Assembly: GCA_964016885.1 (NCBI GenBank)
Contig: OZ024740.1
Coordinates: 113,336,001-113,400,000, forward strand
Length of the DNA: 64,000 bases
Reading direction: 5' to 3'
From: Eledone cirrhosa
Lineage: Eukaryota
Shown here: in pieces, positions 12,248-58,736 of the stretch
How positions within the stretch are numbered: the stretch's first letter is position 1
How the letters are laid out: each line of letters starts with the position of its first letter
Notes under the pieces: model-generated
Told to the model about the DNA's origin: nothing
Database searches by the model: none
What the model saw: the letters and a program-made list of their open reading frames with translations, nothing else
Program-made: the position numbers and the translations under genes

Positions 12248-12297
<50 letters not shown>
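12241..12297 (+). repeat. (ATT)n microsatellite, 5' target flank of Tx1 copy 2
   Basis: Directly visible; abuts the element start. Confidence 0.93.
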
Positions 12298-18174: not shown

Positions 18175-18190
18175 ATTATTATTATTATTA

Positions 18191-31115: not shown

Positions 31116-33746
31116 ATGTTTCCGAGTAAAATGTTCTCACTCTCTATAAGAGATATAGATGATCAGTATTCTTCAGTGAAGCCAAGAGGAGTACAGATAG
31201 ACAGAGCAAGATCACTAGAGACCCCTGCACACCGACAGCAAAGGCATGAAAACGACCGGAGGAGAGCTGCTGCATGCAGGGCCAATGAGTCACAAGAGGC
31301 AAGGGAAAAACAGGTTAGAACAATTACGTCAACAAAATCCAATCCGCAGGAGCCAAGAGTGAACAAAGGAAAGAGAAAAATGTTTGAAGTATACAAGACA
31401 AGGGTTGCCCATGAGATAATAGGTCAAGGAGAGATTAGACAAAGTTAAAAACCAGGAGCAAACCGTTGCTGCAAAACTTCGCCAATCCTCAGAGGAAAGA
31501 CGTAAGCGTCTTGATCAAGATAGGCTGAGAAAGATCTCCGTGCATCAGATTACATTCACCTGAGAGATGCAATCAGCAATGAAGGAGCATTGGCTGCTGA
31601 TAACACTGGACAGCTTTGTTATACTTCCATCAAGCGTTACAGCATATCCACGGTATATGCAGGAGCATATCCAACATGCACTTACATATGTCAGACACTA
31701 TGGTCGTCAAGACGTCTTCATTACATTCACATGTAACCCAGCATGGCATGAAATAAAGAGTGCGCTTTATCATCATCAAGAACCTAAAGATCGCCATGAT
31801 ATTATAGCTAGGGTGACGAGACTTAAAGTCATAAAGCTGATGGATCTCCTACAAAATGGTGAATTCTGTGAACCAGTCAAATATGACATGTACACAATTG
31901 AATGGCAAAACGAGGATTGCCACATGCCCACATTTTGATTTGGCTACATGAAAAACTTCGGCCAAAAGATATTGATTTATTTATCTCAGCTGAACTGCCT
32001 GATCCACAGCAAGATCCTTTGTTGCATGAAATTGTCAAGTCCCAGATGATTCATCGGCCCTGTGGTTCAATTAATTCATCCTCCCCATGCACGAGGGATA
32101 ATAAGTGTATCAAGAACTACCCACGTCCCTCTGTACAAGAAAACCAAACTGGAGAAGGTGGCTACTCCCTTTAAAGAAGAAGAAAACCTGGGCATGCTGG
32201 ATACACTTCGAAAAGAAAAGTGCGAAATGGGCAAGAATTCATCACTGGCAATCGGTGGGTCGCACTCTACTATCCACTTCTTACAAAAACTTCCAAAGCC
32301 CATATCAATATTGAATTCTGCAACTCTGTTAAGTCTATTAAGTATGTTTGCAAATATATAAACAAAGGTTTAGATGTTACAACATACACTCTTTTGCAGA
32401 ATGGCAGTCAGCAGATAAATAAAAATGACGAAGTTACACAGTATGAGAGAGAAAGATACATCAGTAGCAATGAGTGTTTTTGACGCATCTTCAATTTTCT
32501 CATTTATTAACGGCACCCAGCCATCATTCATCTGAGTGTCCATATAGAGAATGGTCAAAGGGTTATCTTTACAAAACAAAACGCCTTGCAACAAGCACTT
32601 TCTCCGAAAGAAACTACCCTTACTGACTTTTTTAAGTGTGTCAAGAAGATGAAGATGCAAGAAAACTCCTTTACCTAGACTTACCCAAGTATTACACCTG
32701 GAGAAACAATACATGGCACCAGAGGAAACATGGGGCTGATGCTCTTGCAAGAGTTAACAGTGTCTACCAAAGCCAAGCAGAATGCTACTATATATGGCTC
32801 CTTTTGCATGAAGTACGTGGTTCCAAATCACTCCAAGATTTGAGGAGGGTAATGGTCATGTGTGTGAAACTTATAGGGAAGCATGCTATCAACAAGGTTT
32901 TTTTTAGAAAATGATGAGTATTAGGACCTTGCATTGACTTAAGCATCAGTGTCAGATTCTCCAAGGAAACTCCGTAATCTTTTTGCAATTATGCTGAACA
33001 TGTGTTAACTTGGCAGTCCACTACAGCTTTGAAGGAAACATCGTGCGGACATGACTGAGGAGTTATCAATTTTCAGTTCTCTAAAATGCTTTTTAACCAA
33101 ACGCTGTTTGAAATTGAGGATCAAGTTTTGGCTATGAGAGGTAAACATTTGCAAGAGCCTGGTTCTGGTCTGCCAAAATCAAACCGTCAAATTAGTGCGT
33201 TAACTTCAAGAGGCATAGCAAGAGAGACAAATTATGACATCACAGAGTGGGCTGCATTTGTGAATGGACATGAAACTAAGCTTCTTCCAGAACAACGCTG
33301 TCCATATGATAAAAGTATTTCATCAGAGAAAAAAGCGGAGGAATTTTCTTTCTTGATGCTCCTGGTGGCACCGGTAAAACATTTGTAACGACATTGCTTC
33401 TCTCCAAGGTATTGCAACAAGAAAAAACAAACAAAAAAAACAAACAAAAAAAATCAACAAATTGCAGTTGCTGTAGCATCGCCTGCCATTTCTGCCACCC
33501 TTCTCCCAGGAAGACAAACAGCTCATTCTGCTTTCAAATTACAGCTAAACCTGGCCACAAATGACAGTCCAATTTGTAACATAAACAAAGATTCAGGTTC
33601 AGAAGTGTTGTGCCAATGTCACCTGATCATTTGAGATTAATGCACCATGTATGTCACATAGAGATGCAATAAAAGCTCCTGATAAGACCTTACATGACAT
33701 AAGGGGCAACAGTAAATCTATGGGAGGAGTTACATTAGTTTTATTA
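31116..33746 (+). pseudogene. Helitron Rep/Pif1-helicase (RepHel) pseudogene
   Basis: FITFTCNP, YTIEWQ/KRGLPHAHILIWL (HUH), KSIKYVCKYINKG (Y2), FLDAPGGTGKTF (Walker A, about 33345-33385), TAHSAFKL, GGVTLVL. Many stops and frameshifts. Confidence 0.92.
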
Positions 33747-36700
33747 GATTACTACTGGTATGGCAAGCGTGTTTATGGCATCGATCCTATTCCTTGCATT
33801 CAATTCCGTTCTTAAGATTGCTCTTACTCTGCGGTAACATTCCTTCCTTATCCTTTCCCTCATTGTCGAGTGCTGGATTCCGTCTCCGTCACAAACACCT
33901 AGATATTTGTAAGTTTCCTCTTGATTAAGTTCTCTTATCACATTCCCCCGATCAAGATTCCCCGATCAAGATTAATGTCTGAACTTTTCAGCAGCTTTCC
34001 TCTGGTGAACGTTGCTTTAGCGCATTTATCTAGTCCAAACTCTATTTTAATGTCATCACTGAACTGCTCCACAGTGGATAATAGCCCTTGCAATTGTTCA
34101 TCATTTTTTGCAAATAGTTTCAGGTCATCCATGTAGAACAAGTGATTAATGGTTTTATCATAGACTTTATATCCATGTTTTGTTTCATTGAGCATTTTAC
34201 TTAATGGTATAAGTGCGATGCAGAATAAAAGCGGTGATAAAGAGTCACCCTGAAAAATTCCACAATTAATATCCAGCTTCCAGTGATTTTGTTTCACTAT
34301 TCAAAAGGAGTGTCGTTTTCCATGTCTTCATACTGAATGACAGAAACCTCCTGACAACGGGAGATATTTTGAAAATCTCTAAACATTATTCAATCCAACT
34401 ATGTGGCAAACTATCGAATGCTTTTTTATAATCTATCCAAGCAATTGATAGAATTTTGTGTCTATTAGGACAATCTTCCAGTATCATTTTGTTAACCAGA
34501 AGCTGATTCTTACAGCCAATATGAGTCTCGTTTACACCCTTTCTGCTCATTGGGAAATAGATCATTTGTTATCAGGTGGTCATATGTATATTCAGTTAGG
34601 ACTGATGTTAACATTTTATTCATTGTGGTCAAGCAAGTTATCGGTCTGTAATTTTTGGGATTGTTTGTCTCATCATTCTTCGGAAGCAGGAATGTAATGC
34701 CGTTAACTAGCCATGATGGTTTCTTTTCTGGCTCCTTAACTATTTCATTGTAAAGTTGGGCTAACATCTATTAGACTATGTGAAGGCATTTATCCAAAAA
34801 TTTGGTATTTTGTCTTTTCCTTGGGATTTCCATTTGCTGGTTTTTCTAAGAGCCGAACGCCACTGTTCAACTTTTATATTTTCCCATATTTGTTCCTCAA
34901 GGTGAGCTGTATCTTTCATTTGTCTGTCTATCCATGGGCCATATATATTATGAACTTTTTCTTCGGCCCAGACCTTTTCCCAGAATTCTTGCACTTCCTC
35001 CTTGGATGGTATTGATTTAGCAGTTATTGTTGACTTACCAATTTTTCTGTAGAAGTTTCTTTGGTTGTTTTTGAACATATTATTGTCCTTATAGAATCTA
35101 GATCGTTTTTCAAAGCACCTTATACGAGCAGCTTTGGCCGACACTTTTTCCTTGATTATTTCTATCAGCATGTCTATGTCACTTGTTGATTTTATACTGT
35201 ATTTTCTTTTCAATTTCTAAGTTTAGTTTGTTTAACATGTTCACCTACTTTCTAGTTTGTTAAAATTTCTATGTCAGATCGGAGAATGATTATTTGGCGA
35301 TTGATGTTCTCTTGCCAAGTAGATTTCTTGTGGGAATTCCTTTGTTTTTTCATTTTCACTCCACATAAGTGAGTGGTGACTTTAGCCGATGCATAATAGA
35401 GATGGTTTAAATCAGTAATGTTTAGTTTGTTTGTGATGATAATGTTTTTGAGAATTATGTTAGTCTTGTGTATTATCTTTTGGTTCTGTTTGGAGTTCTG
35501 GATCTTAGGGACAGTGTCTCGTTTCCCCATGTCAGATTCTTTCATTTTCATCCATTCGATCATAATTTCATCCTTCAAGTTGGCAAGTTCATTCTCATTC
35601 ATTTCTTTATCATTTACGATCTCATTGTTTTCATTTTGAGTTTCATCTTGTGCATGCACTCCCTCCATTTTTTCGATCCTTTCTTTAATTTGTTCTGTTG
35701 TCAGTGATTCCGCCCCAACCCTGGGATTCAAAGTGTTACAATTTACCTCGTTTTCACTGACACATGTTTCATTTTCCCTTCGCTGACTTTGTGCTATAGC
35801 TTGATCTGATCAATTTCTATATCAGTTAGTAACTTTTTTTTAACAATATTTCTTCGTATATTGGCTAGTTTGTTACTGTCTATATAGCCTCTGTTTTCGG
35901 GATGTTTCTTTTTCCAGTTTTGTATTCGATCTGTATTCGACCTATTTGGTGGGTAGTACATGGCAGTGTAGAAAGCCTCAAGGACTTCTTTATTATCTTC
36001 CCTTGACCATTTATCTCTCTTTTTCTTTGGATTTCTTGGTGGTGAGCATGGAGGGCCAACAGTAGGAGTATTCCGGTTATGGGAGGTCTCTAGCTCCGAA
36101 GTGATGGGAAGGTTTGAACCATTAGCTGATTTTTCGACCCCAGTCTGGTTCCTCTCTGAGGGACGCGGCCCTTTTTGACCCGGGTGACGGCCGATCCGGT
36201 ATGAGATTTTATCATTTGACATTTATTTTATTTTGTCGCGTTTTATCATTAACCGCCAAGGAGTAATCATTTCGTGTTACCACTTCTAGGACAAGTGTCA
36301 ACCAAGACTAGAGGGGTCGTCCTCCCCTAGAGACACGGCTATTCCCCGCTGGCCGCCATCCCGGTTTTTCGTTGTCACGGGGTTTTCTATTTTGTTGTTT
36401 TTTAAATTGTTATTATCATGAGTGGTTCCTTAATGTGAGCATTGCGTGGCTTAAGAATGAAATTATTATTAATAATATAATATACTTTTTGCTGAAGTTG
36501 CCTGTTATTGTTGTTGGCTATGTCGGTGGTGGTGCTGGGGCTTTTTATATTGTTGGTGAGGAAGGGGGAGCCAGCAGTGCCATAGTCGTTGACATTTGAC
36601 CGGGTCACTAAGTCAATCTATTTATATCTTTTGCTAGCCTCTCCCTTGTCTAGTGATACCGCCACCTTCTCCTTTCTTAAATTAACAGAAGGTAATGGGG

Positions 36701-37359
36701 GAATAGTGGTGGTAGCAATGAAGGAGTGGTGGCGGCGGTGATGGGATAGTGGTAGCAATGATGGATGGAGTAGTGGCGGCGGTGACTATAGTGATGGCGT
36801 TGTCGTTACTGAGTTTTGTTGAATAGACTGTGGTAGTATGCGTTTGTTTGATCTGTGTATCTATGCGGTGTGTCGTGTATGTTTAATATATGTGTTGACA
36901 TATTTTTTTAATATTTGAATTAAACATTTTGAGAAAACTTGAGATACAATAATAGTAATTATTATTATTATGCTGGGATTGGTGGTGGTGGTGGTGAAAT
37001 TGCCGTTATCTAGCTGTTGTATTTAGTGTACACAGAGGGATGATGGGATAGGTGGTGTATCTGGTTTGTGGTGTTGGTGAAATTGCTGTTATTTGGCTGT
37101 TCTATATAGTGTAGACAGAGGGGGTTGTCTTCCATTTATAACCATTATCTTATTTGAATATAAAATTATAATACAAAATTGAATATTTGAGCGATATAAC
37201 AGGATATTATGGATCCAAATTTTCTGAGAGTTGAGTCTGGTGCTTTATGTATCATTTGTACTAAGAATTGTTATATCACAGTTGTTTTAAATATGTTAAA
37301 AATCAAAAACTTACGGGGCGATTTCATGACCTTCTATCCAACACGTGTGTCTTCTTCCC
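33747..37359 (-). mobile_element. Dong/R4-clade LINE family B: intact 5' end, 3' part missing, decayed ORF
   Basis: Collinear with 55203-58657. ORF starts at 36222 (MSNDKISYR); NYRPITCL, GIFQGDSLSP, YMDD, YKYLG. 5' end GGGAAGAAGAC preceded by (GAA)n and (TAA)n. Confidence 0.92.
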
Positions 37360-37383
37360 TTCTTCTTCTTCTTCTTCTTCTTC

Positions 37384-37433
<50 letters not shown>

Positions 37434-38248
37434 GTTGTTATTCCTTGAATCTCAGTCATTGATGTTGGTTAACTGGAAAGTCCGTTGGATTGAATATCAA
37501 GCCACTACCTGCAGCCTCAGATATTCAGGACGTATCGGAGGGTTCTTGCTGTTCCAAGCAAGCATGCCTTTTGAAGCGTTCCAAAAAGCGTGAGGGGCCG
37601 ATTTTCTTTAACCATCCCTGGAAACTTTTGGAGATAGTCCCCAGTGCGCCTATGACAATCGGGATCACTTTGACTTCATGGCAGTTCCAAATCCTTTTCA
37701 CCTCCCACTTTAGGTCCTGGTATCGGTTAATTTTCTCCCTCTCCTTCTCTTGCACTCTCGTGTCGAACGGGCAGGCCACATCCACAATCAGACACGATCT
37801 TTTTTCTTTGTCTACAACCACCAGGTCAGGTCTATTGTGTTCCAGTTTTTTGTCCGTCTGTATCCTAAAATCCCACAGCACCTTCACCTGATTGTTCTCC
37901 ATCACCGCCTCTGGCCTATGCTCATACCATTTCTCAGAATGTGGTAAATTGTTTACTTTGCACAGGTGCCAGTGGATCACCCTGCCCATCACATCGTGTC
38001 TCCAGCCCTTATAGTGGGTCTGGGCTAATTGTTTACACTCGGACACAATGTGAGCCACAGTCTCCTCTCTGTCTCCACAGATCCTGCACAGTGGGCTAGC
38101 CTCCTCCTTGTAGATATGGTGCTTCAACCACTTCGTTTTGAGGGCCTGCTCCTTATAATTATTATTATTATTATATAATAATAACAGTGGGCTAGCCTCC
38201 TCCTTGTAGATATGGTGCTTCAACCACTTCGTTTTGAGGGCCTGCTCC

Positions 38249-38250
<2 letters not shown>
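37434..38250 (-). mobile_element. 5'-truncated Dong/R4 family A copy (CCHC+RLE) with duplicated 5' junction
   Basis: Near-identical to 18191-18912; TAA repeats on both sides; 38184-38250 duplicates 38088-38154. Confidence 0.92.
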
Positions 38251-38328
<78 letters not shown>

Positions 38329-41300
38329 GGTGAAGCCACGCTTCTTATCGACTCCAGTTTTTTTCAACGTTCTACCTCGTTTTCAACCGTTCTAAACCTT
38401 TTATTCAAGTTTTAAATTTGATAAAAGTTTAGAAGAAGTGACCCACCTAATACAGGGGTTCACTCGTAAATAATACGGCACCCCTTTACGGGGTGTCGTA
38501 GTCGTATTCGTATTTGTGTAAAAATATTTTTTTGAAAAAAAAATCAACATGGATAATACAAGAAACAGAGAGAGCGCTGTCAGACAACACAGAGAGAGGT
38601 AGACTTTATCAGCATGTCAACAAGACAGCGTTCCAACGGATGTAAATATAAACGAAAATATTACAAAGGAAAAGAAGATTGTTACAGATTTAAAATTAAC
38701 AAATATTTCTAACACAAACAACACCAACAATAACACCAACAATAACACCAACAACAACACCAGCAACAACACCATCAATAACAACAGCAACAACAAAAAT
38801 AATAGCGGTAAAGTCGAGAACGACAATAACAAAAATAACAGTGGTAAGGTCGAGAACGACAATAACAATGACATAACAACAGCCACAACAAAAATAATAG
38901 TAGGAACACTATCAACAAAAACAACAATAATAACAACAGCCACAATAACAGTAACAACAGCAACAGTATCAACGAAAACAACAACAACACCAACAACTGT
39001 ACCAACGAAAACATCAACAATGACATCGATACCTGTAATAGCGATCTCAGCACCACCATTAAGACCAGTAGCGACAGCAATAGTAGTGCTGCTGAAAAAG
39101 GGACCACTTCTTTTGCAGGTGTCGCTCGAAATATCGAGACAGTGTTAGTCACAGAGGAGGAGATGGCAGTCGCAAGGGCCATGGTGACAAGAAGCGCCAA
39201 TAGAGTCTCCCTGAAACCTCCACCCGATTTTGTCAAGGACCAGCAGCTACGGACGGTGACTTACCGCACCGTAAGCAAAATCTCACATCGGGTGGAGAGA
39301 GCCACGGAGACTCAAATCCAAAAGGCCTTGGGGTGCGTCTGGGCACGCAAAACCCACATCAGCCGAGGCAGAAAGTACGCCACAGTAGACGTACTTTCGC
39401 CACCCCCCAGGAAGCAAAGTCTCACACTTTGGAAACCTTAAAGAGTGGGGAGATAGTCTTGGTGCCCTCCTACTGCGGGCAGAAAATTGTGAGGGTCAAA
39501 GTGACCCAGGTCCCACCCGGCGTGACCATACCTTGGCTGGCCGCGTCTGTCCTTGCTGGAATCGAGAACAGGACGACCATGCTGCAAGTAGAAAAAATAG
39601 GGAGAGAGAACTGGTCAGGTATAGTCATGCAAATGCTTATACAAACTGACCAGGAATGTATCGATGCTATCCCTGATATCATAGACATCGAGGAAAGACT
39701 CCAACTCCCTATAAGTGTAGAAAGAAGGCGGCCAAAATGTTATCTCTGTGGGTCGAAGGGTCACCTCAGGGCCTTTTTCCCGCAGAATACAGCGAAGTAG
39801 AAGGCCCCTCTCCTTCCAATACCTTGTCCGTTGCTACCAAGAGTAGGGCAGGCAACAAACGCAGAAGCCCCTTCCACGGTGAGTAGGAGGGCAACGTCCG
39901 TAGCACCCGTACCAAGGCCACGGACAACTAAAGCAGCATCATCAGTGGAGGCAACACCAATAGCTACATTTGAAGTAGCTACACCAGCAACAAAATTGCC
40001 GAAGAGGGTTGCACTACCACCACCAACAACCGTGGAGAACATCCCAGATGCCACAGAATCCGACATGGAGTTTGAGGCGGGAGTGAATTGACAAACGGTC
40101 TGCCACAAAAAAAACAAAAAAGAAAAAAACCCTTAGATTCACCCTCCAAAAGCGAAGGCATACAAAGAGGGGTAAAGGCAGCAAGGAAACTTGCAGCAAC
40201 ACCACCACCATCACCACCACAGGCACCACTGACAACAACAACCACACCATTACCAGCATCACCAAAAACACCAACAACGCAAACACAACAAGACACACAC
40301 ACCTAACAGCAGCAAGAAGAAAACAGCAACAAAATCCCCCCTGTCCCCAAAAAGTACAGAGCCATAAACATGGCAAAAAAGAACTCATACAATATATAAA
40401 GCAGCACCCAGACATCACAGAAAAAAACTACTACACCCCACCAACACCAAGAACTCTCCCGACAAACATAAGCATCATTGAAATCTCAATAGAACAGTAC
40501 AAACCTTTAAAACAAAAATTATCCAACTCAGTTGGAGACTTCAGAGGGTCGGTTACCAAGAGGATATACACTGACATCCTCTTGGAAACACCCATGACCA
40601 GCGAAAGGGACGGTTCTACTGTCCCTTCACCACACGATCAAGTTAAGTGACCCTTTCTCAATTGCCCCGTTTCTCATCCAACATGGCCGTACTCAGAATA
40701 GGCAGTATAAATGCACGTGGCCTGGGTCATCTTGGAAGCAGGGTCACCTGCTCAACGACCTCAGGTCACTAAACATAGATGTGGTGGCCATCAGTGAGAC
40801 CAGAATCTCTGAAGCACAAGCCTTCGCACCGATATTCGGCGGCTACGATGTATACGCATCTTCCAGCCGTCCTGGATCGGGGGGAGGGCTTGCCATCCTT
40901 TTTCGGAGAGGCTTGGATCTCGCCATACGGGCCATTTCCTAGACCCAGAAAGTAAGTCGGTGGTGCTGGACGTGACCGGCAGCGAAGGCAATGATTTCAG
41001 GCTAGTAGCCGTCTACGCCCCAACAGGGACAGGACGGCCAGATTTCTTCAGACGTCTAGAGACCTTTCTTGGAACTTCCCGCTCTTTAGTGTTAGTGGGC
41101 GACTGGAACGGTATCTTGGATGCACGCTGGGATTGTGTGGGTCTAGTGAATAGGGGAGGAGAGCCTTACCAACCTGCTCAGACGTTTTGAACTGTCTAAC
41201 AGGTATCGACTGGATCACCCGAATGTGCCAATGTGGACATGAACAAACCACATCGGGTCATCCAGATCGTATCTCGAAAGGGCATTCTGCAGAAGAACTA

Positions 41301-44300
41301 GATAAGGCTAGTATAAGTTTTCCACAATTTAAAATAGTCGACTACACAGACCACAAATTTGTGATCTGTGAGATCGACATAGACAGACTTCATAGAAAAG
41401 GGCCTGGTTACTGGAAGCTGACCGCGTCTTTCCCGGCGCGCAAAGCCTACAGAGACCGGATTAGTGTATTAGTTAAGCGGGCGTTGACGGGAGCGGTCGT
41501 TAACAACAGGTGGTGGTTCGCCCTGGAAAGCGCAATTAAAGTAGAGTCGATTAGGTTTAGCAAAGGACTAGTGATAGAGGAAAATAGAGTAGAGGGAGAG
41601 CTAGTCAGAAAGCTAGAAAAGGCGTTTAGGACAGGCATCGCAACCGACGTGCTTGCGGCGAGATTGGCACTCGACCAATTCTTCAACGCAAAACACGAAG
41701 GCTGTGTTGTCAGAGCTAGAGCGCGTGCTCTGAAACACGAGGGGACAAAAGCCGTCCAATGGGCCCGGGTGGCAGAGGCGCGACGTGTCAACAAACCCAC
41801 AATTCGGTCTTTGTCTCACCAAAACGGGTGCGTGATGCTCGAACTCGAGCGGATGTGTGAAGCTTTTCAGCAGCACTTTGCTGAACTTTTCGGGAACAGC
41901 GGCGGCCCGGATCGGGGCATGGACTTCAGTCCATACCTCGACGGACTGCTTCGGCTCTCGACGACTGCAGCACAGTGTTGCGTAAAGCCAATAACAGCCG
42001 GTGAAATACGGGAAGCGATGGCTAACTGCACCAGGGGTAAATCGCCAGGTTTGGATGGTCTACCCAACGAGCTTTATGCATTTTTGCCAGACTTGTTCGG
42101 TGACCTCTTGGCTGACGTCTACTGCAACTGGCAGCAGAATGGGAGCATTCCCAGTTTTGTGAGCCGGAGAGCAGTGGCGCTGCGGAGAAAAGACCCGAAC
42201 AAGGGGGATGTTATCGAAAATTTCAGGCCCATAACCCTGCTAAACGCAGAGTTCAAGGTTTTGGCCAAGGTGTTAGGAACGAATTTGGCGCTTGTCGTCA
42301 AGGGTCTGGTGGGAGAGGCGCAGGCATGCGCCATTCCGGACAGATCTATACACGACAACCTCCACCTCATGCGATAAATCATAGAGAGGGTGGTTAAGGA
42401 ACCTGGCACGGATGGGGCCCTGATCAACTTGGATCAATCCAAAGCATTCGATAGGGTCGACCATCGGTACCTGGCGGCGGTTCTCGAGGCAGCTAGTTTC
42501 GGGCCCGTTTTCAGCAGTTGGATCGCAGCAATATACAGCGACATCTGTTCAGTTGTGAGGGTGAACGGTCACCTGTCACAGCCGTTCAGCATCATGCTTT
42601 CAGTCCGCCAGGGTTGTCCCCTCTCGTCCCTCTTGTACGTATTGGCTCTCGAGCCGTTACTGCACAAACTGGGAGCGATGAGGGGCGTCCCACACGACCT
42701 AGGATTACGAACAAGGAATACGAAGCGGTGACAAGAGCAAAGATAAACCAGGAAAAGTCGGTGGGCTTGCAGCTCGACACCTGGAGAGGCAAGTCCATGC
42801 CGTCCGACAGCACGTGGGGGTTTGACGGACGGAACGGTTAAATTGCTCGGTTTCTGGTTCGGACCGGACCTCCAGATGGAGAAAAACTGGAACGAGGTGA
42901 CGAGTAGGGTGGCCTCCCTCACCCAGAAATGGGCCGAGAGGAAGCTGGCCTTGAAAGGCCGGGCGGAGGTGGCGAATGCGTACATCGCATTCGTCATCTG
43001 CTACCGCCTCACCGTCGTCCCTTGCTCCAGCCCAACTCTCACCAAAATGGAGCGCCTCCTCTTCCGCTTTTCGTTGAAGGGACGCGCTCCCATGGTCAGA
43101 CGATGCATCTGCTGTAAACACCCGCTGCGTGGAGGACTGGGCATGCCATGGCTGATGATGCGCAAACATGCGCTGAGGCTGCGACATCTCTGGTGCTTCC
43201 TTGACGGTGAACAGGTGTGGTCGCCGTTCGCCAGGCACGTTTTCCCACAGCTCGTCTCCTTGACGGAGCTGCAGTCCTGGCTCAGAAAAAGACCGAGGGA
43301 TAGCGCTTGGAAACTGGAATGTCTCCAGGTGCTCACCGCCCTCTGCCAGCTGGGCACCAGTATCGGCGTATTATCCACCTCGGAGTTCTATAGAGGACTA
43401 GTGGAGGGGAAGAGTGACGACGTTCTTGGAGAGATCCTGGGCGTCGAAGAAGATCAGCTGTTTGCTCTCTTCCGGAGAACTTTCAGCCCAGGGCCTAAAT
43501 CCCTGGCCTGGCAGTGTTACCGGGGAGCGCTGCCGGTTCGAGATAAGCTCTACAGGCACGGAAATGCCGTCAGCCGAGTCTGTCCGATATGCGCGCAGAG
43601 CGACGAAACCGTCGTGCACGCACTCGTTCAGTGCCCGAGCATTGCTGACTTGTGGAGCTATGTCGAACAGTTGCTGTCGCGTGTGGGACAGATCCGGTTA
43701 TCGACTGAGTCCATTGTGCAGATGGTCACGCCGTCTTACTTCGAGGAAGAAGGGCAGGCGGTTTTCATCCGCCTGGTGGCCATGGCGAAAGAGATTGTGT
43801 GGTGGACAAGGTTAAAAGGGTTAAAGACAGACACCTTCCTCTTCGGCGAATCCCTAATTAACTTTTTCAAGTTTCACTTGAAGAGGAAAATCAAGGTGGA
43901 GAGGCAAGTGCTGCCTTCTAGCTAGATTGTTGAAAGGTGGTTGAATGTAGCGAGAATGGTCCGAGTGAACGGGACCGCTCTGAATATACGTCTGTAGTTT
44001 GAGAAATGGAAAAATTGAGAGAGAGCGCTTGCCCTGGTGGTTAGGGTGGCCTTGGTCTTTTGTGTGGTTTTCGCCACAAGTAACCCTCGGAGGTTTCCCC
44101 CCTATCGGGGAATTTTTCATTGTTTCAATTTTCATTTTTATTGTTTATATATATATATGTTTCTATGTCCTTTTTTTTTCTTTTCTTATATAAATAATAA
44201 AAACATTTACACGCACAAAATCCACATCGTACAGTCCTGTACCGTCCTGTGCCGTCTGTAATGTTTTAGTTGATGTCAGCCCTTCTGGCCAATAAAGAAA

Positions 44301-44302
44301 TC
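38329..44302 (+). mobile_element. Full-length Tx1-clade LINE (copy 3) in (ATT)n
   Basis: ORF1 about 38549-40650 (CYLCGSKGHLRAF). ORF2 about 40683-43997, disrupted, with a deletion over the YADD region near 42705. Ends GCCAATAAAGAAATC then (ATT)5. Confidence 0.92.
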
Positions 44303-44317
44303 ATTATTATTATTATT

Positions 44318-47300
44318 GAATGCCATGGTTGACGGAGGCTCGGCTTTGTAAAGTATTGTACATTTTAACCGCTATAACAATTGTAAATTGTTTAAAACTT
44401 TAACCAAACTGTAGACAAAAACACCCCCCTCCTCGTTAGAGGGGTCTTTCTGCCCGATAATTGGCCCTTCGGGGTTAAATAACCGCTTATTGGGGTTTTG
44501 TGCCCAATATTTATTTTAAACCAAAAAAAAACATGGCTACAAAAAATAATTCTCACAAGTCACTCGCACTCATTCCGTCTTCTTCTTCCTCAATGGTCAC
44601 TACACCAGAGAGAAGATTGTCTCTCTCCCCCCTTCTCTAAATGTGTCTCTCTCCCTCCCTTCTCTTTCGCAAGCGACGCCAGTAAAAAAAAATAGTTTCC
44701 AAAATCACGTGCAAAGCGTGCAAGATTTCTCCACGACGACGACGACAACGACGAAAAAGGTGTGCGGTAAATACTAAAACATATTTCATTCGTCTGACGT
44801 CATGAATAATAGTAGTAGCAGCCGTAATAACAGCAGCAGCAGCAACAGTCACAGGGAAAACAACAGTAGCAGCGGCAACAGCGCCAGCAGCAGCATAAAC
44901 AACAACAGCATTAGCAGCAACAGCAACAACAACAGCAGCAGCAGCAGCAACAACAACAACAACCACAGCAACAGCGGCGGCGGCATCGTAGTACCAGCAG
45001 CAACAACAAAAGTAACAGCAGCTCTGACGACGACAACAACAACAACAAAGAAAAATCAATCTCGTTTGCATGTATCGCAAAGAACCTGGAAACCATCCTT
45101 ATAACAAATGAGCAATTACAGGAAGCAAAGAAGATGGTGACGAAAACCGGACACCGAGCAATCTGCAAGGCAGCCGAAAAATCTTTCGAAACCCAACAGC
45201 ACTGTACGGTCACGTACCGTACAGTAAGCACAAAATCCCGTAGGGTTGAAAAGGCCACAGAGGCCCAAATACAAAAAGCCTTAGGGTCTGTGTGGCAGCG
45301 GAAAACGCATATCACCCGAGGCAAAAAATATGCCACCGTGGACGTGCTTTTTGCCACACTCCAGGAGGCAAAGGCTCAATCCTTAGTGACCCTAAGGAGC
45401 GAGGAAATGGTGTTGGTGCCCTCCTGCTGCGGACAAAAAGTTGTGACGGTCAAACTGACCCATGCCCCCCCCCCCCGGGACGGCCCCTTCTGGGCTGGCC
45501 GCGTCTGTCCTCGTCGGAATCGAGGACAAAACAACTGTACTGCAAGTACAGAAAAGAGTAAGATAAGATTAGGTCGGCACCTCCATTGAGATGTTAATCC
45601 AAACCAACCAGGAGTGCATCGAAGCTATCCTGGATGTGATAGACTTCGATAACGGCACTCAACTGCCCATAAGTGTTGAGCGCAAACGCCCGAAATGCTT
45701 TCGCTGTGGATCGAAGACTCACCTCAGGGTCTTCTGCAACGAGAAAACCCAGAGAAAGGAGAAAACCCCCCTCCTTCCGAAACTGGCTCCACTGCTACCA
45801 GCAACAGGACAAACGGCAACCAGGAACGATAGGTCCGTGACACCCATACCCACGCCACGGAAATCAAAATCAGCAGCAGCAGTGGAAGTATTAACAACAA
45901 CAACAGCAATATCCAACTGCAGCTGCAACAGAGACTCCACTGCAAACATCACCAACAACAATAAGTGAAAGAGTGGAGCTGGTATCCCTCCCCGATCTCA
46001 CAGAATCGGACATGGAGTGTGAGGTGGGAGAGGGATGTCAAAAGGTCACAAGTAGGCACAAACGCAGAAGCAGCGCATCGTCGCCTTCGAAAAGGGAGGA
46101 AAGAAACGAAAAAAGGGTAAAGGCTACTGCAAAAAGATTTACAGCAGCAACACCAGCAACACCATCACCACCCATACTAGCACCACCATCACCACCGGCG
46201 GCAACCCCACCGCCAACAACAACAACACCTTCAACACCACCACCACAAGCACCAACATCGCAAACACAACAAAACACACACACCCAGCAACAACGACAAG
46301 AAAATAGCAGAACCACACCCCACCCCCAGAAAAAACAAATGCACAGCAATAAATACACACAAGAAATTAATGACTTACATAATTGAACACACACACATTT
46401 CACAGCATGACTACATAATACCAGCACCAATCAAAACACCAACGAATATAAGACTGTTAAAAATAGTACAGAAACAATACACAAACATTAAAACGAAATT
46501 CCCCAACGTAGTTGGTGATTTCAGAGACCTAAGAGGGACACTCAACCGGAGGGTATATTCGGATATATTCACAGAAGAGCCGACGACCAGCCGAAGGGGC
46601 GATTCAACGGTCCCTTCACCAGACGATCAAGTGAAAAGGGATGGTGAAAACATCCTTCCTCTGCGAGAAGAAGTAAGGTAAGTGGTCTTTCCCATCTTTT
46701 CCACTCCAATTCAACATGACCTCACTCAGAATAGGCAGCATAAATGCGCGTGGCTTGGGGTCGTCATGAAAGCAGGGCCACCTGCTCAACGACCTCAGGT
46801 CACTAAATATAGATGTAGTGGTCATCAGCGAGACCAGAATCTCCGAAGCACGGGCCTTTGCACCGATCTTCGGCGGCTACGATGTGTACGCATTTCCCAG
46901 CCGTCCGGGATCGGGGGAGGAGTTGCTGTGCTTTTTCGGAGAGGTTTGGATCTCGCCATACGGGCCATCTTCCTGAACCCAGAAGGTAAGTTGGTGGTGC
47001 AGGACGTGACCAGCGGAGACGGGCAAGCTTTCAGGCTAGTGGCCATCTATGCCCCGACAGGAGCAGGGCGGCCTGATTTCTTCCGGCGTCTGGAGACATT
47101 TCTAGGAACGTCCCGCAATTTAGTGTCAGTGGGCGACTGGAAAAGGGTCTTAGATGCACGATGGGACTGTGTGGGATTAGCGGATAGTGGAGGAGGTTGC
47201 AAGAGCCTCACCAACCTGCTCAGGCGTTTTGAACTGTCTGACAGGTACCTATTGGATTTCCAGAGTGTGCCAATGTGGACTTGGACAAATCGCATAGCTC

Positions 47301-50300
47301 ATCCAGATCATATCTAGATAGAGTATTTTGTAGGGAAATAGATAGGTCTAGCATAAGCTGTCCACAATTCAAGATAGTCAGCTACACGGACCACAAATTC
47401 GTGATCTGTGTGCTTGACTTAGATAGGCTTCATAGACGAGGACCCGGCTACTGGAAGCTAAACGCTTTCTTACCAGCGCGCAAGGCCTACAGAGAACGGA
47501 TTAACGAACTAGTTAAGCGAGCGTTGACGGGGGCCATCGTCAACAACAAGTGGTGGTTTGCTCTGAAAAGAGCGATTAGAATAGTGTCCATTAGGTTTAG
47601 TAAGGCTTTAGCTATAGAGAAAAATAGAGCAGAGGGAGAACTAGTTAGAAAATTAGACGAGGCGCTTAGCAAAGGCATCGCGACCGACGTACTTGCGGCG
47701 AAATTGGCCCTTGACCAATTATTCAATGCAAAGCACGAAGGCTGCGTTGTCAGAGCTACGGTGCGTGCTCTGACACGAGGGGACGAAAGCCGTTCAATGA
47801 GCCCGAGTGGCGGAGGCGCGTAGTGGCAACAAAGCCACGATCCGGTCCTTGGTGGACCACGACGGGCACATGCTATTCGATCCCGGGCAAATGTGTGAAG
47901 CTTTTCAGCGACACTTCGCACAGATGTTCGGGGGCAGTGGCGGGCCAGATGGACTTTAGTGTCTACCTCGACAGACTGCCGCAGCTCTCGGCCACTGAGG
48001 CGGAGTGTTGCCAAAAGCCGCTGAAGTACGGGAGGCAATGACTGGCTGCACAAGGGGTAAATCGCCTAGTGTGGATGGTCTGCCCTATGAACTTTACGTA
48101 CAAATGCCAGACTTGTTCGGAGGCCTCTGGGCGGACGTCTATTGCAACTTGCATCAGAACGGGAGAATTCCCAGCTCTGTGTGCCGAGGAGCGGTGGCAT
48201 GTCTGAGAAAGGATCCGAACAAGGGGGATAACATAGATAATTTCAGGCCCATAACTCTGCTAAACACAGAGTTCAAGATTTAGCCAAGGTGCTAGCAAAG
48301 AGGTTGGCGCTTGTCGTTGGTGGTCTGGTGGGAGAGGCGCAAACATGCGCCATTCCCGACAGATCCATCCACGATAACCTCCAACTCATGCGATACATCG
48401 TAGAGAGGGTAGCTAGGGAGCTTGGAACGGGTGGGTCCTTGATCAATTTAGATCAGTCGAAAGCTTTCGATAGGGTCGACCATCGTTACCTAGCCGCAGT
48501 CCTGAGGGCGGCTGGCTTTGGGCCTGTTTCAGAGGCTGGATCGCTGCCATGCACAGCGACATCTGCTCTGTGGTGAGAGTGAACGGTCACCTGTCGGAAC
48601 CGTTGAACATCATGCGCTCGGTCCGCCAAGGATGTGCCCTCTCGTCCCTCTTGTACGTATTGACTCTCGAGCCATTACTGCACAAACTGGAGACGTAGGT
48701 GGGTGCCGCGAGAACTAGGATGCGGAAGATCCGTGTCAGCATATGCAGCCGATGTCACCGTAGTGGTGTAGAACGCCAAACACATCGAGGCGATCGGCAC
48801 TACACTAAGAGAAACCGAAGCGGTGACAGGAGCAATGATCAACCAGGAAAAGTCAGTGGGCCTGCAGCTCGGCACCTGGAGAGGCAGTTCCATGCCGTCC
48901 AACAGCGTCGTCGGGCGCTGGATGGACGGGCCAGTTAAATTGCTAGGGGTCTGGTTTGGTCCGGATCTCCAGACGGACAAAAACTGGGACGAGGTGACGA
49001 GCAGGGTGGCTTCTCGTACCCAGAAATGGGCTGAGAGGAAGCTATCCCTGAAAGGTCGAGCGGAGGTGGCTAACGCGTATATCGCGTCCGTCATCTAATA
49101 CCGCCTGACCGTCGTACCTTGTCTTAAGCCCCACCTGACTGCGCTGGATCGTTTGCTCTTTCGCTTTTTGTGGAAGGGACGCGCTCCGATGGTCAGGCGG
49201 TCCATCTGCTGTCAACACCCGCTACGTGGAGGGCTGGGAATGCCGTGGCCGATGATGCGCAGACACGCGCTCAGGCTACGACATCTCCACCTCTTCCTCG
49301 ACGGTGATCAGGTGTGGTCTCAATTTGCTAGACGCGTCTTTCCCAAGCTCGTCTCATTGACGGAGCTGCAGTCCTGGGTCAAGCGAAGACCGAGCGGGAG
49401 CCCTTGGAGACTGGAATGTCTTCAGGCGGTCACAGCCCTCGACCAATCGGGCAATGTGATCGGTGGAAACTCCACCTTGGCGTTCTATAGAGGATTAGTG
49501 GAGGGGAAGAGCGACGACGTACTTGGGGAAACTCTAGGCGTCGACGAAAATCAACTAGCCAATCTCTTCGGAAGAACTTTCGGGCCGGGGCCTATGGAAA
49601 CATCCAGAAATCCCTGGCCTGGCAGTGCTACCGAGGAGTTTGTCAGTTCGGGATAAACCCTACAGGCATGGAGGTGCCGTCATCCGGGCATGTCCAAGAT
49701 GCGCGCAGGGCGACGAAACCGTCCTGCACGCACTCGTCCAGTGTCCGAGCATTGCTTACTTGTGTTTTTATGTCGAACACCTGCTGTCGCGTGTAGGACA
49801 GATCCAGCTATCAGCTGAGTTCATAGTGAGAATTGTCCCGCCCTCTTCCTTTAGCCGGGAAGGGCAAGCAGTTTTTATCTGTCTGGTGGCTACGGCGAAA
49901 GAGATAGTATGGTGGACACGTTTGAAAGGGATGAAGACGAGCACTTACCTCTTCGGTGATGCTCTGATTAACTTTTTCAAATTTCATTTAAAAAGGTATA
50001 TCAGGGTAGAAAGGGAAGTGCTCTCTTCCCAGCATTTTGTTGAAAGATGGGAAGAGAGGCAAGAATGGTCCGAGTGAATGAGCTTACTCTGAGTATGTGT
50101 CTGTAAATTAAAGGTGGTAACAGGGAGAGGGCACTTGCCCTGGTGGTCAGGGTCACTGTGGCTTTTTCCTGGGCTTTCTCCACGAATGTCGCTCGGAAGT
50201 CTCCCCCCTATTGGGGAATTTTTTCATTGTTCTATTATTACATCCTCTGTTTCTTGTTTTTTACACGCAGAAATGCCCATTTGAACCGTCCTGTATTGTC

Positions 50301-50355
50301 CTGTACCGTCCTTAATGTCTACTTTATGTAGACCCTTGTGGTTAATAAAGAAAGC
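44318..50355 (+). mobile_element. Full-length Tx1-clade LINE (copy 4), head-to-tail after copy 3
   Basis: ORF1 about 44533-46681 (CFRCGSKTHLRVFC). ORF2 about 46716-50106, disrupted and close to copy 2. Ends GTTAATAAAGAAAGC then ATT repeats. Confidence 0.92.
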
Positions 50356-50367
50356 ATTATTATTATT

Positions 50368-52355
50368 ATCATAGAGAGGGTGGTTAAGGAACCTGGCAAG
50401 GGTGGGGCCCTGATCAACTTGGATCAATCCAAAGCATTCGATAGGGTCGACCGTCGGTACCTGGCGGCGGTCCTCGAGGCAGCCGGTTTCGGGCCCGTTT
50501 TCAGGCGTTGGATCGCAGCAATGTACAGCGACATCTGCTCAGTTGTGAGGGTGAACGGTCACCTGTCGCAGCCGTTCAGCATCATGCGCTCAGTCCGCCA
50601 GGGTTGTCCCCTCTCGTCCGTCTTATACGTATTGGTTCTTGAGCCGTTACTGCACAAACTGGGGGCGATTAGGGGCGTCCCACGCGAACTAGGATGCGGG
50701 AAATCCGAGTCGGCTTACGCTGTCGACGTCACCGTGGTGGTGTCGAGCACCAGACACGTCCAGATGCTCGGCACCGCTCTCAAGGAATATGAAACGGTGA
50801 CAGGAGCAAAGATAAACCAGGAAATGTCGGTGGGCTTGCAGCTAGGCACCTGGAGAGGCAAGTCCAAGCCGTCCGACAGCGTCGTGGGGCGTTGGACGGA
50901 CGGACCGGTTAAATTGCTCAGGGTCTGGTTCGGACAGGACCTCCTGATGGAGAAAAACTGGAACGAGGTGACGAGCAGGGTGGCCTCCCTCACCCAGAAA
51001 TGGGCTAAGAGGAAGCTGTCCCTGAAAGGCCGGGCGGAAGTGGCGAATGCGTACATCGCATCCGTCATCTGCTACCGCCTCACCGTAGTCCCTTGCTCCA
51101 GCCCAACTCTCACCAAAATGGAGCGCCTCCTCTTCCGCTTTTTGTGTATGGGACACGCTCCCATGTTCAGACGATCCATCTGCTGTCAACACCCGTTGCG
51201 TGGAGGACTGGGCATGCCATGGCTGATGATGCGCAAACATGCGCTGAGGCTGCGACATCTCTGGTGCTTCCTTGATGGTGAACGGGTGTGGTCGCCGTTC
51301 GCCAGGCACATTTTCCCACAGCTCGTCTCCTTGACGGAGCTGCAGTCCTGGGTCAGAAAAAGACCGAGGGATAGTGCTTGGAAACTGGAATGTCTCCAGG
51401 CGCTCACTGCCCTCTCCCAGTTGTGCACCAGTATCGGTGGAACATCCACCTCGGCGTTCTATAGAGGACTAGTGGAGGGGAAGAGCGACGACGTTCTCGG
51501 AGAGATCCTGGGCGTCGAAGAAGATAAGCTGCTTGCTCTCTTTCGGAAAACTTCCAGCCCAGGGCCTATGGATAACTTCCAAAAATACCTGGCCTGGCAG
51601 TGTTACCGGGGAGCGCTCCCGGTTCGAGATAAGCTCTACAGGCACAGAAGTGCCGTCAGCCGAGCCTGTCCGAGATGCGCGCATAGCGACGAAACCGTTG
51701 TGCACGCACTCGTTCAGTGCCCGAGCATTGCTGACTTGTGGAGCTATGTCGAACAGTTGCTGTCACGTGTGGGACTGATCCGGTTGTCGACTGAGTCCAT
51801 TGTGCAGATGGTCTCGCCGTCTTCCTTTGAGGAGGAAGGGCAGGCGGTTTTCATCTGCCTGGTGGCCATGGCGAAAGAGATTGTGTGGTGGACAAGGTTA
51901 AAAGGATTAAAGAGAAACACTTTCCTCTTCGGCGAATCCCGGATTAACTTTTTCAAGTTTCACTTGAAGAGGAAAATCAGGGTGGAGAGGCAAGTGCTGC
52001 TTTCTAGCAAGTTTGTTGAAAGGTGGGTGAATGTAGCGAGAATGGTCCGAGTGAACAGGACCACTCTGAATATATGTCAGTAGTTTGAGAGATGGCGCTT
52101 GCCCTGGTAGTCAGGGTGGCCGTGGTCTTTTGTGTGGTTTTCGCCACGAGTAACCCTCGGAGGTTTCCCTCCTATTGGGGAATTTTTCATTGTTTCAATT
52201 TTTATTTTATTGTTTATATATATATATATGTTTTATGTCTTTTTTCTTTTCTTATATAAACAATAAAAATATTTACACGCACAAAACCCACATCGTACCG
52301 TCCTGTTCCGTCTGTGATGTTTTTCTTGATGTCAGCCCTTGGGCCAATAAAGAAA

Positions 52356-52357
<2 letters not shown>
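50368..52357 (+). mobile_element. 5'-truncated Tx1-clade LINE (copy 5), same subfamily as copy 3
   Basis: Open frame from inside RT (DQSKAFDRV, RQGCPLS, mutated YAVD) to 52083; 3' UTR like copy 3; long (ATT)n at 52358-52436. Confidence 0.92.
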
Positions 52358-52430
<73 letters not shown>

Positions 52431-52436
52431 TTATTA

Positions 52437-53062
52437 CAGTTGCATTTATCTTGCTTTATGTTCATACGAGTTATCACCAAGTCACAACCAGTGACCTCAA
52501 GAGACAACAAGGTCCGCCATGTTCAAGAAAGAACATACATACTCACACATGCATCTTTAGTGTTTAGACTTGTGATGTACTTATATTGACAGAATCTTCC
52601 TTAGTATATGGGCAGTTCCCATTAGTACTATCTTTTGTATTTCTTCTATACGCGGGTTTCCTGGGATTTGCGATAAGTAGTCATTAGACCCCTTAGGTAT
52701 CATTCCCAGAGCGCCTACAACCACTGGTATTGTTTTAGTTCTCAATTTCCACATTTTTCAAATTTCTATCTCCAGGTCCTTATACTGGCTCAATTTTTCA
52801 AATGTTTTTATAGATAAATTCTTGTCTATTGGAACAGACATATCAATTAGCAGGCATACCCTCTTTTTAAAGTCCTTCGATATTATATCAGGTCTATTTG
52901 CATCTATTTTTCGGTCTGTTTGGATGCTAAAGTTCCACAAGATTGAGATGTGATCTTTTTCAAGTATGGGTGGTCGTTGATGCTCCCACCAATTCTTTTG
53001 ATGGGGCAGGTCAAAATGCTTACACATTATCCAATGTATGTATTGTGCAGCTCTGTCATGCC
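52437..53062 (-). mobile_element. 5'-truncated Dong/R4 copy (RLE + 3' UTR) of a family distinct from A, probably B
   Basis: RHDRAAQYIHW...NRPDII..D..K...KLSQYKDLEIEI...IPVVVGALG; TAA repeats on both sides. Confidence 0.88.
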
Positions 53063-53126
<64 letters not shown>

Positions 53127-53136
53127 CGTTATTATT

Positions 53137-54806: not shown

Positions 54807-55065
54807 CACTGTTTCCATATTATAGTAGCAATGCAATGAGATTATTTCCCAAGGAAAGAAAGAGTTTTAAATTTCATATTATTAATGATCATGGTTAAAA
54901 CCATCTCCTTCTTCTTAATATTGACACTCCGTTTGGTACCTTATTGATTGCACTTTAAGTTACACAAATGGCAGAGTGCTTTACGTCTGTTTGCGACTAA
55001 AGTCGATAGCTTATGTGATTAAGCAACTTTTCTTTACTTGAATAATAATAATAATAATAATAATG

Positions 55066-55092
<27 letters not shown>

Positions 55093-55113
<21 letters not shown>

Positions 55114-55167
55114 TCACTGGTTGTGACTTGGTGATAACTCGTATAAACATAAAGCAAGATAAATGCA

Positions 55168-55168
<1 letters not shown>
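55093..55168 (+). mobile_element. Extremely 5'-truncated Dong/R4 copy (terminal ~75 nt) within (TAA)n
   Basis: Matches the reverse complement of 52440-52495; flanked by (AAT)n at 55041-55092 and 55169-55202. Confidence 0.85.
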
Positions 55169-55202
<34 letters not shown>

Positions 55203-56054
55203 GGGAAGAAGACGCACGAGGTGGTAGAAGGTCATGAAATCGCTCCCGTAAGTTTTTGATTTTTAACATATTTAAATCAATTGTGAAATCACAATTCTTA
55301 GTACAAATGTTGCATAAACCACCGAATGAAGTCCCATAAAATTTCGGATCCATATTATATTGTTATATCGCTCAAATGTTCAATTTTGTATTATATATTT
55401 TGTATTCAAAAAAAGAAAATGGTTATAAATGGAAGAAAACACCCTCTGTCTACACTATATAGAACAGCCAAATAACAGCAATTTCACCAACACCAGAAAC
55501 TTGATACACCACCTATCCCATCACACTAAATATAACAGCCAGATAACGGCAATTTCACCACCACCACCATCAATCCCGGCATGATAATAATAATTACTAT
55601 TATTATTGTCTCAAATTTTAACAAAATGTTTAATTCCAATTTTACGGGAATATGTCAACACAATATATATTAAACATACGAACACAAATTCATAGATACT
55701 ACATATCACAAAACCCAGTAACCACAACGCCACCGCCACCACCACCCCATCCATCATCTTGCTACCACTATCCCATCGCCGCCGCCACCACTCCTTCATT
55801 GCTACCACCACTATTCCCCTGTTAACTTGAGAGAGAAAGGGGAAGGTGGCGGTATCACTAGACAAGGGAGAGGCTAGCAAAAGATATAAATAGATTGACT
55901 TAGTGACCTGGCCACCGGCCAAACGTCAACATCAACAACTATGGGACTGCTGGCTCACCCCTTCCTCACCAACAATATAAAAAGCCCCGGCACCACCACC
56001 GACGTAGCCAACAACAATAACAGGCAACTACAGCAAAAAGTATATTATATTATT

Positions 56055-56099
56055 GTAATGCACTGGGTGATTGCTGGCCTTGTGCCTGGAGTGGAGACA
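56055..56099 (+). mobile_element. SINE 3'-tail fragment inserted in the Dong-B 5' UTR
   Basis: gtaatgcactggg...tgctggccttgtgcc...gaca flanked by attatt; absent from the paralogous site at 36460-36490. Confidence 0.8.
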
Positions 56100-56356
56100 A
56101 TTATTAATAATTTCATTCTTAAGCCACGCAATGCTCACATTAAGGAACCACTCATGATAATAACAATTTAAAAAAAAAAAAAAAAAAAAAAGAAAACCCC
56201 GTGACCAAGAAATACCGGGATGGCGGCCGGCGGGGAATAGCCGTGTCTCTAGGGGAGAACGACCCCTCTAGTCTTGGTTGACACTCGTTCTAGAAGTGGT
56301 AACACGAAATGCTTACCCCTTGGCGGATAAGGATAAAACGCGACAAAATAAAGTAA

Positions 56357-58657: not shown

Positions 58658-58736
58658 AAAAAACTTAATTAATTTTTTTTTTATTGCTACTATTAAAAAC
58701 TTAATTAATTTTTCTTTTATTGCTACTAGCTATGTG

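Follow-up and report, generated by a model that had tools for sequence, protein, structure and literature searches.

The array at 33747..53136 of the window, by which we mean the whole 64,000-nucleotide stretch analysed, was made up of six LINE copies from two clades with (ATT)n as their sole joiner. Its first element was Dong-B (33745..37361, minus strand), which had an intact 5′ end and had lost the 3′ 1.3 kb including the endonuclease region (positions 1-3608 of a 4918-bp full copy, 93% identity). This was followed by (TTC)8 and then (TTA)n, in which Dong-A's own short degenerate tail was embedded (37350..37442, plus strand), and by a 5′-truncated Dong-A with an intact 3′ end and restriction-like endonuclease (RLE) motifs (37443..38153, minus strand, 99% identical to its nearest copies). 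Next came (ATT)26 (38251..38328, plus strand) and three plus-strand Tx1-like LINEs, namely Tx-B (38329..44302) and Tx-C (44318..50355), both full-length with decayed ORFs, and the 5′-truncated Tx-D (50368..52357). They were separated, on the plus strand, by (ATT)5 (44303..44317), which had the length of one target duplication, and by (ATT)4 (50356..50367). Tx-D was followed by (ATT)21, one TTT and (ATT)4 (52358..52435, plus strand), a 5′-truncated 3′ piece of the Dong-B family (52436..53063, minus strand; positions 4288-4915 of the full copy, 98%), and (ATT)20 with a degenerate end (53065..53136, plus strand), which formed the right boundary at about 53136. This last Dong piece thus derived from the 3′ end of a Dong-B element and did not represent a third family. 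At the 5′ junction of Dong-A, a 96-bp tandem duplication (38088..38270, no strand assigned) contained short runs of ATT together with 66 bp of Dong-A; it was missing from the list of an earlier sequence-only reading.

The element order given in that reading was confirmed by mapping to full-length copies at other genomic loci. Its statement that no unique DNA lies between the elements also held, as the 1.1-kb segment preceding the Dong-B ORF was the family's own leader, present at 30 of 30 loci. Neighbouring copies were of different families and different apparent age; Tx-B and Tx-C shared 74–78% DNA identity, and identity to the nearest copy ranged from 94 to 99%. The description of the array as lying in one microsatellite failed at the left end, where there was no repeat and Dong-B directly abutted a PIF1 helicase fragment that broke off at this point too. 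This end was a deletion that fused the two, so a single founding microsatellite cannot be read off it. The PIF1-like fragment itself was broken and probably of Helitron type (33313..33746, plus strand; Pfam PF05970 positions 19-145 of 223, in three frames), and its end at the Dong-B cut point marked the left boundary of the array.

The 19-kb array was not special but one of many, others being 20–38 kb long. A second array in the window (12242..19997, no strand assigned) had the repeat at both outer ends and consisted of (ATT)n, Tx-A (12298-18174, plus strand), (ATT)6, Dong-A (18202-19952, minus strand) and (ATT)8. In a third cluster (55041..58667, plus strand), the repeat was flipped, giving (AAT)n, a 56-bp Dong-B 3′ tip, (AAT)11 and a Dong-B copy without its 3′ 1.5 kb. 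Another array, on contig C28, contained three consecutive identical tandem Dong-B units, which represent either another growth route or an assembly artefact; growth of arrays by insertion alone, as first suggested, was therefore not supported.

The earlier proposal of two endonuclease types was borne out by the anatomy of the elements. The Tx1-like LINEs had an ORF1 with a CCHC knuckle and an ORF2 with an APE endonuclease, a reverse transcriptase (RT) and a C-terminal zinc finger, and the solved structure nearest to ORF2 was L1 ORF2. Their target was sequence-specific with short duplications. It is from this anatomy that we apply the provisional label Tx1-like. Dong had a single ORF (a 1139-aa open frame in a genome copy) with Pfam RVT_1 and no Exo_endo_phos, and the repeat at its insertion sites read (TAA)n on the strand of the element. 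The translations of both Dong-A and Dong-B ended in a CCHC finger and PD-(D/E)xK motifs, a pattern that we take to be that of an RLE, and the nearest solved structures were R2 proteins. The two families shared only 40% protein identity, yet had a 5′ leader in common. Homologue searches returned no named Dong or Tx1 protein.

The orientation of the elements followed the strand of the repeat. In the window, the four ATT-linked Tx copies without exception read along the ATT strand, and the six Dong pieces along the TAA strand; this extended to the pieces at 55113 and 55203, where the repeat was flipped, and agreed with the sequence-only reading. When orientation against the repeat strand was checked genome-wide, the rule held, with the opposite-strand repeat at 0 of 447 junctions outside the window. 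For Tx, ATT was found at 57/59 3′ junctions, 85/92 full 5′ junctions and 10/27 truncated 5′ junctions, and for Dong, AAT was found at 131/135, 29/37 and 68/97, respectively; these counts favour young copies, since the loci scored were the top hits. Such a repeat adjoined 14 and 22 of 20,000 random positions (about 0.1%). A looser tract-centred count gave wrong-strand ends for 2 of 325 Dong, 2 of 205 Tx1-like and 2 of 85 SINE ends. In an exact count over the whole genome, 7,790 Tx 3′ ends were followed by ATTATT and none by one AAT-strand phase, and TATTATT preceded 1,679 of the 1,771 Tx-A 5′ ends. Each kind of element thus almost always faces its own way at the ATT repeat throughout the genome.

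A tRNA-type SINE, with a head that is presumably tRNA-like, shared its 3′ end with the Tx1-like LINE. Target duplications of 11–21 bp flanked 29 of 84 SINE copies, 23 of them starting with ATTAT; the shuffled mean was 4.3. The ATTAT start likely marks the nick, and the SINE likely borrows the Tx1-like machinery. Target duplications were found at three of 27 Tx copies, the three informative cases, and none of the four candidates among 101 Dong copies was convincing, all being repeat-like. Target regeneration by duplication was thus seen for the SINE and for these three Tx copies, but not convincingly for Dong. At two loci (L266 and L298), the SINE duplication contained the first bases of a Tx copy, showing that the SINE had arrived later; this weakened SINE tails as candidate founders of arrays.

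We consider it highly likely that separate retrotransposon copies piled up at (ATT)n to form the array, Tx1-like elements on the ATT strand and Dong on the TAA strand, in directions that likely stem from two endonucleases nicking opposite strands before target-primed reverse transcription. Opposite-strand nicking would follow from the element orientations if target-primed reverse transcription applies. The Tx1-like APE would nick the AAT-reading strand, leaving ATTAT after the insert, and a second cut about 10–20 bp away on the other strand would duplicate some 4–6 repeat units. The Dong RLE would nick the TTA-reading strand, possibly aided by pairing of a short AAU-like 3′ tail. Because each insertion is proposed to leave repeat on both sides, the site would stay a target. 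The tRNA-type SINE likely joins via the Tx1-like machinery, and a third, CR1-like LINE that is itself not repeat-targeting likely contributes, through its ATT tail, to the seeding of new tracts. Deletions, of which the left end here is an example, and occasional tandem duplication would then reshape the arrays.

Alternatively, base pairing between the 3′ end of the RNA and the nicked repeat, or RNA assistance in priming the second strand, could be the main determinant of orientation in place of strand-specific endonucleases; either enzyme may then nick both strands, with only one orientation able to prime. Dong-A has an encoded AAT-like tail, slippage at Dong-B 5′ junctions is suggested by the AAG units and abortive 5′-end repeats there (seen at 8 of 29 other loci), and 3′-end annealing has been proposed for SART1 (PMC7265360). 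We find this improbable, since outside repeat DNA the duplications of SINE and Tx begin with ATTAT immediately behind the element end, as a sequence-specific nick predicts, and since an endonuclease domain swap swaps the specificity of SART1 and TRAS1 (PMC7265360).

The repeat might also be each family's own 3′ tail from reverse transcription, which would make the strand rule a tautology and the clustering a general liking for AT-rich or dead DNA. At Dong-A ends there is a degenerate AAC/AAT tail particular to the family, the CR1-like LINE makes ATT tails without targeting, and across the genome SINE insertion sites can be as short as ATTAT. However, truncated Dong copies kept the repeat on their 5′ side at many different truncation points, in 68 of 97 cases against the 0.1% expected by chance, indicating that the repeat is the target and not just a tail. 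The CR1-like LINE, which served as a tail-only control, had ATT at its 3′ end but at no more than one of seven scorable 5′ junctions (p = 0.006 compared to Dong). In an off-tract Tx copy (L013), too, the duplication followed the element end immediately, and no tail had been added. Among the 17 truncated Tx 5′ junctions that failed the strict repeat call, nine were internal deletions, six had shorter own-strand repeats and two were other cases; 14 of the 97 truncated Dong junctions lacked the repeat without explanation, eight of these being fusions with the body of a Tx or a SINE. The truncated 5′ junctions largely refute the own-tail explanation, which we regard as very unlikely.

Assemblies classically break at microsatellite joints, 33747..53136 was not spanned by any read or contig piece, internal deletions were common and the C28 units were identical, but an array made by misassembly, or by tandem duplication or recombination instead of serial insertion, is extremely unlikely given that no neighbours in it were copies of each other, that each element had private truncation points and that the joint type was present in raw reads of another sample. 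In those reads, Dong-(ATT)n-Tx-C joints were found at three Dong truncation points with 36–39 reads each. Read sets X1-X3 came from one sample, maybe the assembly's source, and are not independent. A flank-to-flank joint, as expected of an empty allele, was absent among the matches listed, which were short contigs and RAD reads too short to span the array, and two metagenome scans gave no relatives with flanks in other species.

Dong insertion at TAA, microsatellite targeting by Tx1 and two families facing opposite ways at one repeat are each already published. The R1-clade elements SART1 and TRAS1 enter the telomeric (TTAGG)n of Bombyx mori in opposite directions and form mixed arrays, with the endonuclease setting the site (PMC7265360, PMC10088271). 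The ATT system works like SART/TRAS, with two families sharing one short repeat in opposite directions in mixed arrays, but it is not a member. SART1 and TRAS1 are both APE-type and telomeric, whereas here an APE element is paired with an RLE element that lacks an APE domain, at thousands of sites in a dispersed interstitial trinucleotide.

Dong elements of the R4 clade (Bombyx Dong, DongAg, and DongBg of the snail Biomphalaria) target TAA repeats on their own strand (PMC3812793; primer in PMC3774820), and the families described here resemble them in target, strand, single ORF, RT and C-terminal RLE motifs. They are set apart by the presence of two families, 40% identical in protein, with a common leader. 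Bombyx Dong has an HDV-like 5′ ribozyme (PMC3774820); here Rfam gave no ribozyme match in the window, and a strict custom descriptor, which could miss a divergent ribozyme, gave none in the first 1.3 kb of six Dong copies (nine copies scanned, Dong and Tx).

The Tx1 clade includes the microsatellite-specific Kibi (TC)n, Koshi (TTC)n and crocodilian Tx1 (TTCC/TTTC)n (PMC4494074), which the present family resembles in its two ORFs, APE and RT domains and microsatellite insertion. In contrast to these, its target is (ATT)n, which is absent from the targets named in the text of PMC4494074, and is common to an RLE element. The crocodilian SINEU shares its target preference with Tx1-Mar and was likely moved by a Tx1 family (PMC4494074). 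The SINE here similarly shares the preference of the Tx1-like family and was likely moved by the same machinery, but differs from SINEU in its presumed tRNA-like head and loose ATTAT target. Our literature searches found no Tx1-like family that targets ATT and has a dispersed repeat in common with an RLE element, although Repbase and figure 3 of PMC4494074 may list ATT-specific Tx1, and no paper linking Tx1 with an ATT, AAT, TAA or TTA microsatellite phrase. They also found no account of Dong-R4 or L1-Tx1 targets in cephalopods, where the abundance of both is established; Octopus vulgaris carries abundant Dong-R4 with recent activity (PMC13282606). The present results add (ATT)n as a target for a Tx1-like family and suggest that two unrelated endonuclease folds converge on one dispersed trinucleotide, probably by nicking opposite strands. 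A sister Tx1-like family in the same window lay in (TATC)n, with an APE domain 61% identical, and having the two families side by side offers a direct test of a shift in APE specificity.

A broader and rather unlikely possibility is that (ATT)n, instead of being an ordinary microsatellite, is a landing pad both made and used by retroelements, seeded by the CR1-like LINE, with the APE LINE, its SINE and two RLE LINEs splitting the strands in thousands of polarised arrays. If so, read-through of one partner would be antisense to the other, as the partners always face opposite ways, and each array might act as a small self-silencing, piRNA-cluster-like unit. About 23,800 (ATT)n tract starts were counted genome-wide, interstitial and dispersed, and 29 of the first 30 long ATT tracts on contig C1 were element junctions. 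Most long ATT tracts in the genome may be such junctions, which bears on cephalopod microsatellite markers, repeat annotation and assembly.

Simple repeats were plentiful in the 64 kb, which also contained LINE-type ORFs. Self-comparison, together with alignment to full-length copies drawn from the same genome, bore out the proposed order of elements between 33745 and ~53136, namely Dong-B(-), Dong-A(-), Tx-B(+), Tx-C(+), Tx-D(+) and a Dong-B-family 3' piece(-). Only repeat DNA lay between them, as the sequence-only reading had stated, although it missed a 96-bp duplication at 38088-38270. The strand rule that it had proposed for the window also held, with 4/4 ATT-linked Tx copies on the ATT strand and 6/6 Dong pieces on the TAA strand. 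The claim that the array sits inside one microsatellite could not be supported from the left end, where there was no repeat and Dong-B adjoined a PIF1 helicase fragment. Dong-B stopped there at position 3608 of 4918 and the PIF1 fragment at profile position 145 of 223. That both were cut off at their junction points to a deletion.

The genome-wide orientation count, set beforehand as a check, was made in loci L001-L300 from the same genome, minus 7 window-derived and 2 neighbouring loci. Matches of ≥88% identity and ≥50 bp were kept and identical junctions were collapsed; most loci were top-scoring matches, which biased the count to young copies. Tx copies had ATT at 57/59 3' junctions, 85/92 full-length 5' junctions and 10/27 truncated 5' junctions. 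The corresponding AAT counts for Dong-A and Dong-B together were 131/135, 29/37 and 68/97. The opposite-strand repeat was found at 0/447 junctions, and the chance level of a repeat beside a position was 14 and 22 per 20,000 positions. The 17 truncated Tx 5' junctions that failed the score comprised 9 internal deletions, 6 shorter own-strand repeats and 2 others; the 29 Dong failures comprised 10, 5 and 14, respectively. In exact whole-genome counts, ATTATT followed 7,790 Tx 3' ends compared to 0 for the AAT phase (one phase tested), and TATTATT preceded 1,679 of 1,771 Tx-A 5' ends. A looser count around 392 tracts gave own-strand to opposite-strand ratios of 323:2 for Dong, 203:2 for Tx and 83:2 for a tRNA-type SINE, so exceptions exist and are rare. 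At L089, L214 and L298, an element's own short repeat ran into an inverted tract. The two-LINE (ATT)n system is real and genome-wide, and the proposed mechanism is plausible.

The 3' rule on its own could be explained by each family's own tail. The repeat found 5' of copies truncated at many different points cannot be element-encoded, and the repeat is therefore a target and not only a tail. A third LINE, whose motifs we take to be CR1-like, ends in (ATT)n (L271, L274, L289-L291, L294, L296-L298) and served as a built-in control. Among the 5' junctions of this LINE that could be scored (7 of the 11 listed), 1 at most had ATT (p=0.006 vs Dong). In L291, Dong-A was located in the (ATT)n tail of this LINE.

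The SINE shared its last ~25 bases with the Tx 3' end and obeyed the Tx strand, with the opposite repeat at 0/117 junctions; the SINE itself was dispersed. In non-repeat DNA, 29/84 SINE copies had duplications that were 11-21 bp long (median 17), and 23 of these began ATTAT; with shuffled flanks the mean was 4.3 and the maximum 8. The same signature was seen in 3/27 Tx copies. Duplications starting ATTAT would place the first nick of Tx/SINE insertion on the AAT-reading strand, and each Tx insertion would gain 4-6 repeat units, consistent with the (ATT)5 and (ATT)4 spacers in the window. The earlier claim that insertion regenerates the target thus found support in SINE and Tx but not in Dong, where duplications in 4/101 copies were all repeat-like and none was convincing. 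Eight truncated Dong copies were joined directly to the body of a Tx or SINE copy, which may represent target loss at the Dong 5' junction. AAG units at 8/29 Dong-B 5' ends, resembling the window's (TTC)8, likely arose through slippage at the start of the element itself. The SINE, with a 3' end resembling that of Tx, was present as copies and as tandem runs at 10563-10740, 20844-21200 and 23789-24385, and a 67-bp piece of it lay within a Dong-B leader (56055-56121).

Neighbours in the array belonged to different families (Tx-B and Tx-C were 74-78% identical), and nearest-copy identity among the fetched loci ranged from 94% to 99%. These differences fit separate insertions spread over time. In another sample, RAD reads contained joints of the type Dong-(ATT)n-Tx-C, with Dong truncated at three different points and 36-39 reads for each, so this joint type is real. 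No read or contig piece spanned the array itself, whose continuity is taken from the assembly. Counting against a pure insertion model, four full-length Dong-B units stood in tandem with a 4955-bp period in L301-L303 (G000:C28:114,443,347-114,463,146), differing by 0, 0 and 6 positions, the first three being identical. This tandem is a recent duplication, a concatemer insertion or a misassembly.

Genome-wide there were ~23,800 (ATT)8 tract starts. Between the first 100 tracts on C1, the window's contig, 29 of the 99 gaps measured ≤7 kb, compared to 2.4 expected, and same-strand pairs made up 25/29 close (≤7 kb) and 44/70 distant pairs (p=0.03). Of the first 30 C1 tracts, which were chosen blind to elements and are neighbours rather than a random sample, 29 touched a retroelement end, with overlapping contacts to Dong or Tx (15), CR1-like tails (8), SINE (10) and one more Tx-like end by eye. 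The CR1-like LINE may provide the starting point for new landing tracts. In forty 10-kb samples taken at even spacing, 4 tracts were present, every one at an element end. Further arrays spanned ~38 kb on contig C4 and 20 kb or more on C2.

Dong-A encoded a single 1139-aa ORF with RT and C-terminal CCHC and PD-(D/E)xK motifs, and R2 proteins were its closest solved structures. Dong-B showed 40% protein identity to Dong-A and shared the first ~130 bases of the leader. This shared leader start was noted in L094, L095, L099 and L283, and some copies resemble chimeras with the leader of one Dong family and the body of the other. Tx copies encoded an ORF1 with a CCHC knuckle and an ORF2 with APE, RT and a zinc finger, closest in structure to L1 ORF2. 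Homologue searches with the element proteins returned no named Dong or Tx1 reference, so the clade names Dong and Tx1-like are based on anatomy. Among the named homologues, the closest came from Argonauta and Acanthosepion, which makes a cephalopod host likely.

Every ingredient of the system has precedent. The cited passages describe a TAA-repeat target for Dong in silkworm, mosquito and snail (PMC3812793), TC, TTC and TTCC/TTTC repeats as targets of Kibi, Koshi and crocodilian Tx1, and a target shared by SINEU and Tx1-Mar (PMC4494074). They also describe opposite insertion directions of SART1 and TRAS1 in telomeric repeats, with the site set by the endonuclease (PMC7265360, PMC10088271), and discuss targeting of multicopy DNA as a low-harm strategy (PMC4640811). 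In octopus, passages report abundant Dong-R4 and L1-Tx1 and give no target (PMC13282606, PMC8967140). A search confined to the running text of papers did not tie Tx1 to an ATT, AAT, TAA or TTA microsatellite. Both this combination of ingredients and an ATT target for the Tx1-like family appear to be new. At 1964-7806 (+), one full-length member of a Tx1-like sister family, with an APE domain 61% identical, had (TATC)n-type rather than ATT flanks; this single copy provides a natural control for target switching.

The GC-rich segment at 56200-56340, immediately ahead of the Dong-B start codon, has self-complementary arms and is possibly a structured RNA element. Penelope-like fragments lay at 1-498, a weak GIY-YIG Pfam match, and at 58668-59450, adjoining the cut 3' end of a Dong-B copy at 58667. 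All 10 kb of L207 (G000:C3/C4 sample) was a CA-rich satellite-like repeat with a weak match to the low-complexity region of Tx ORF1.
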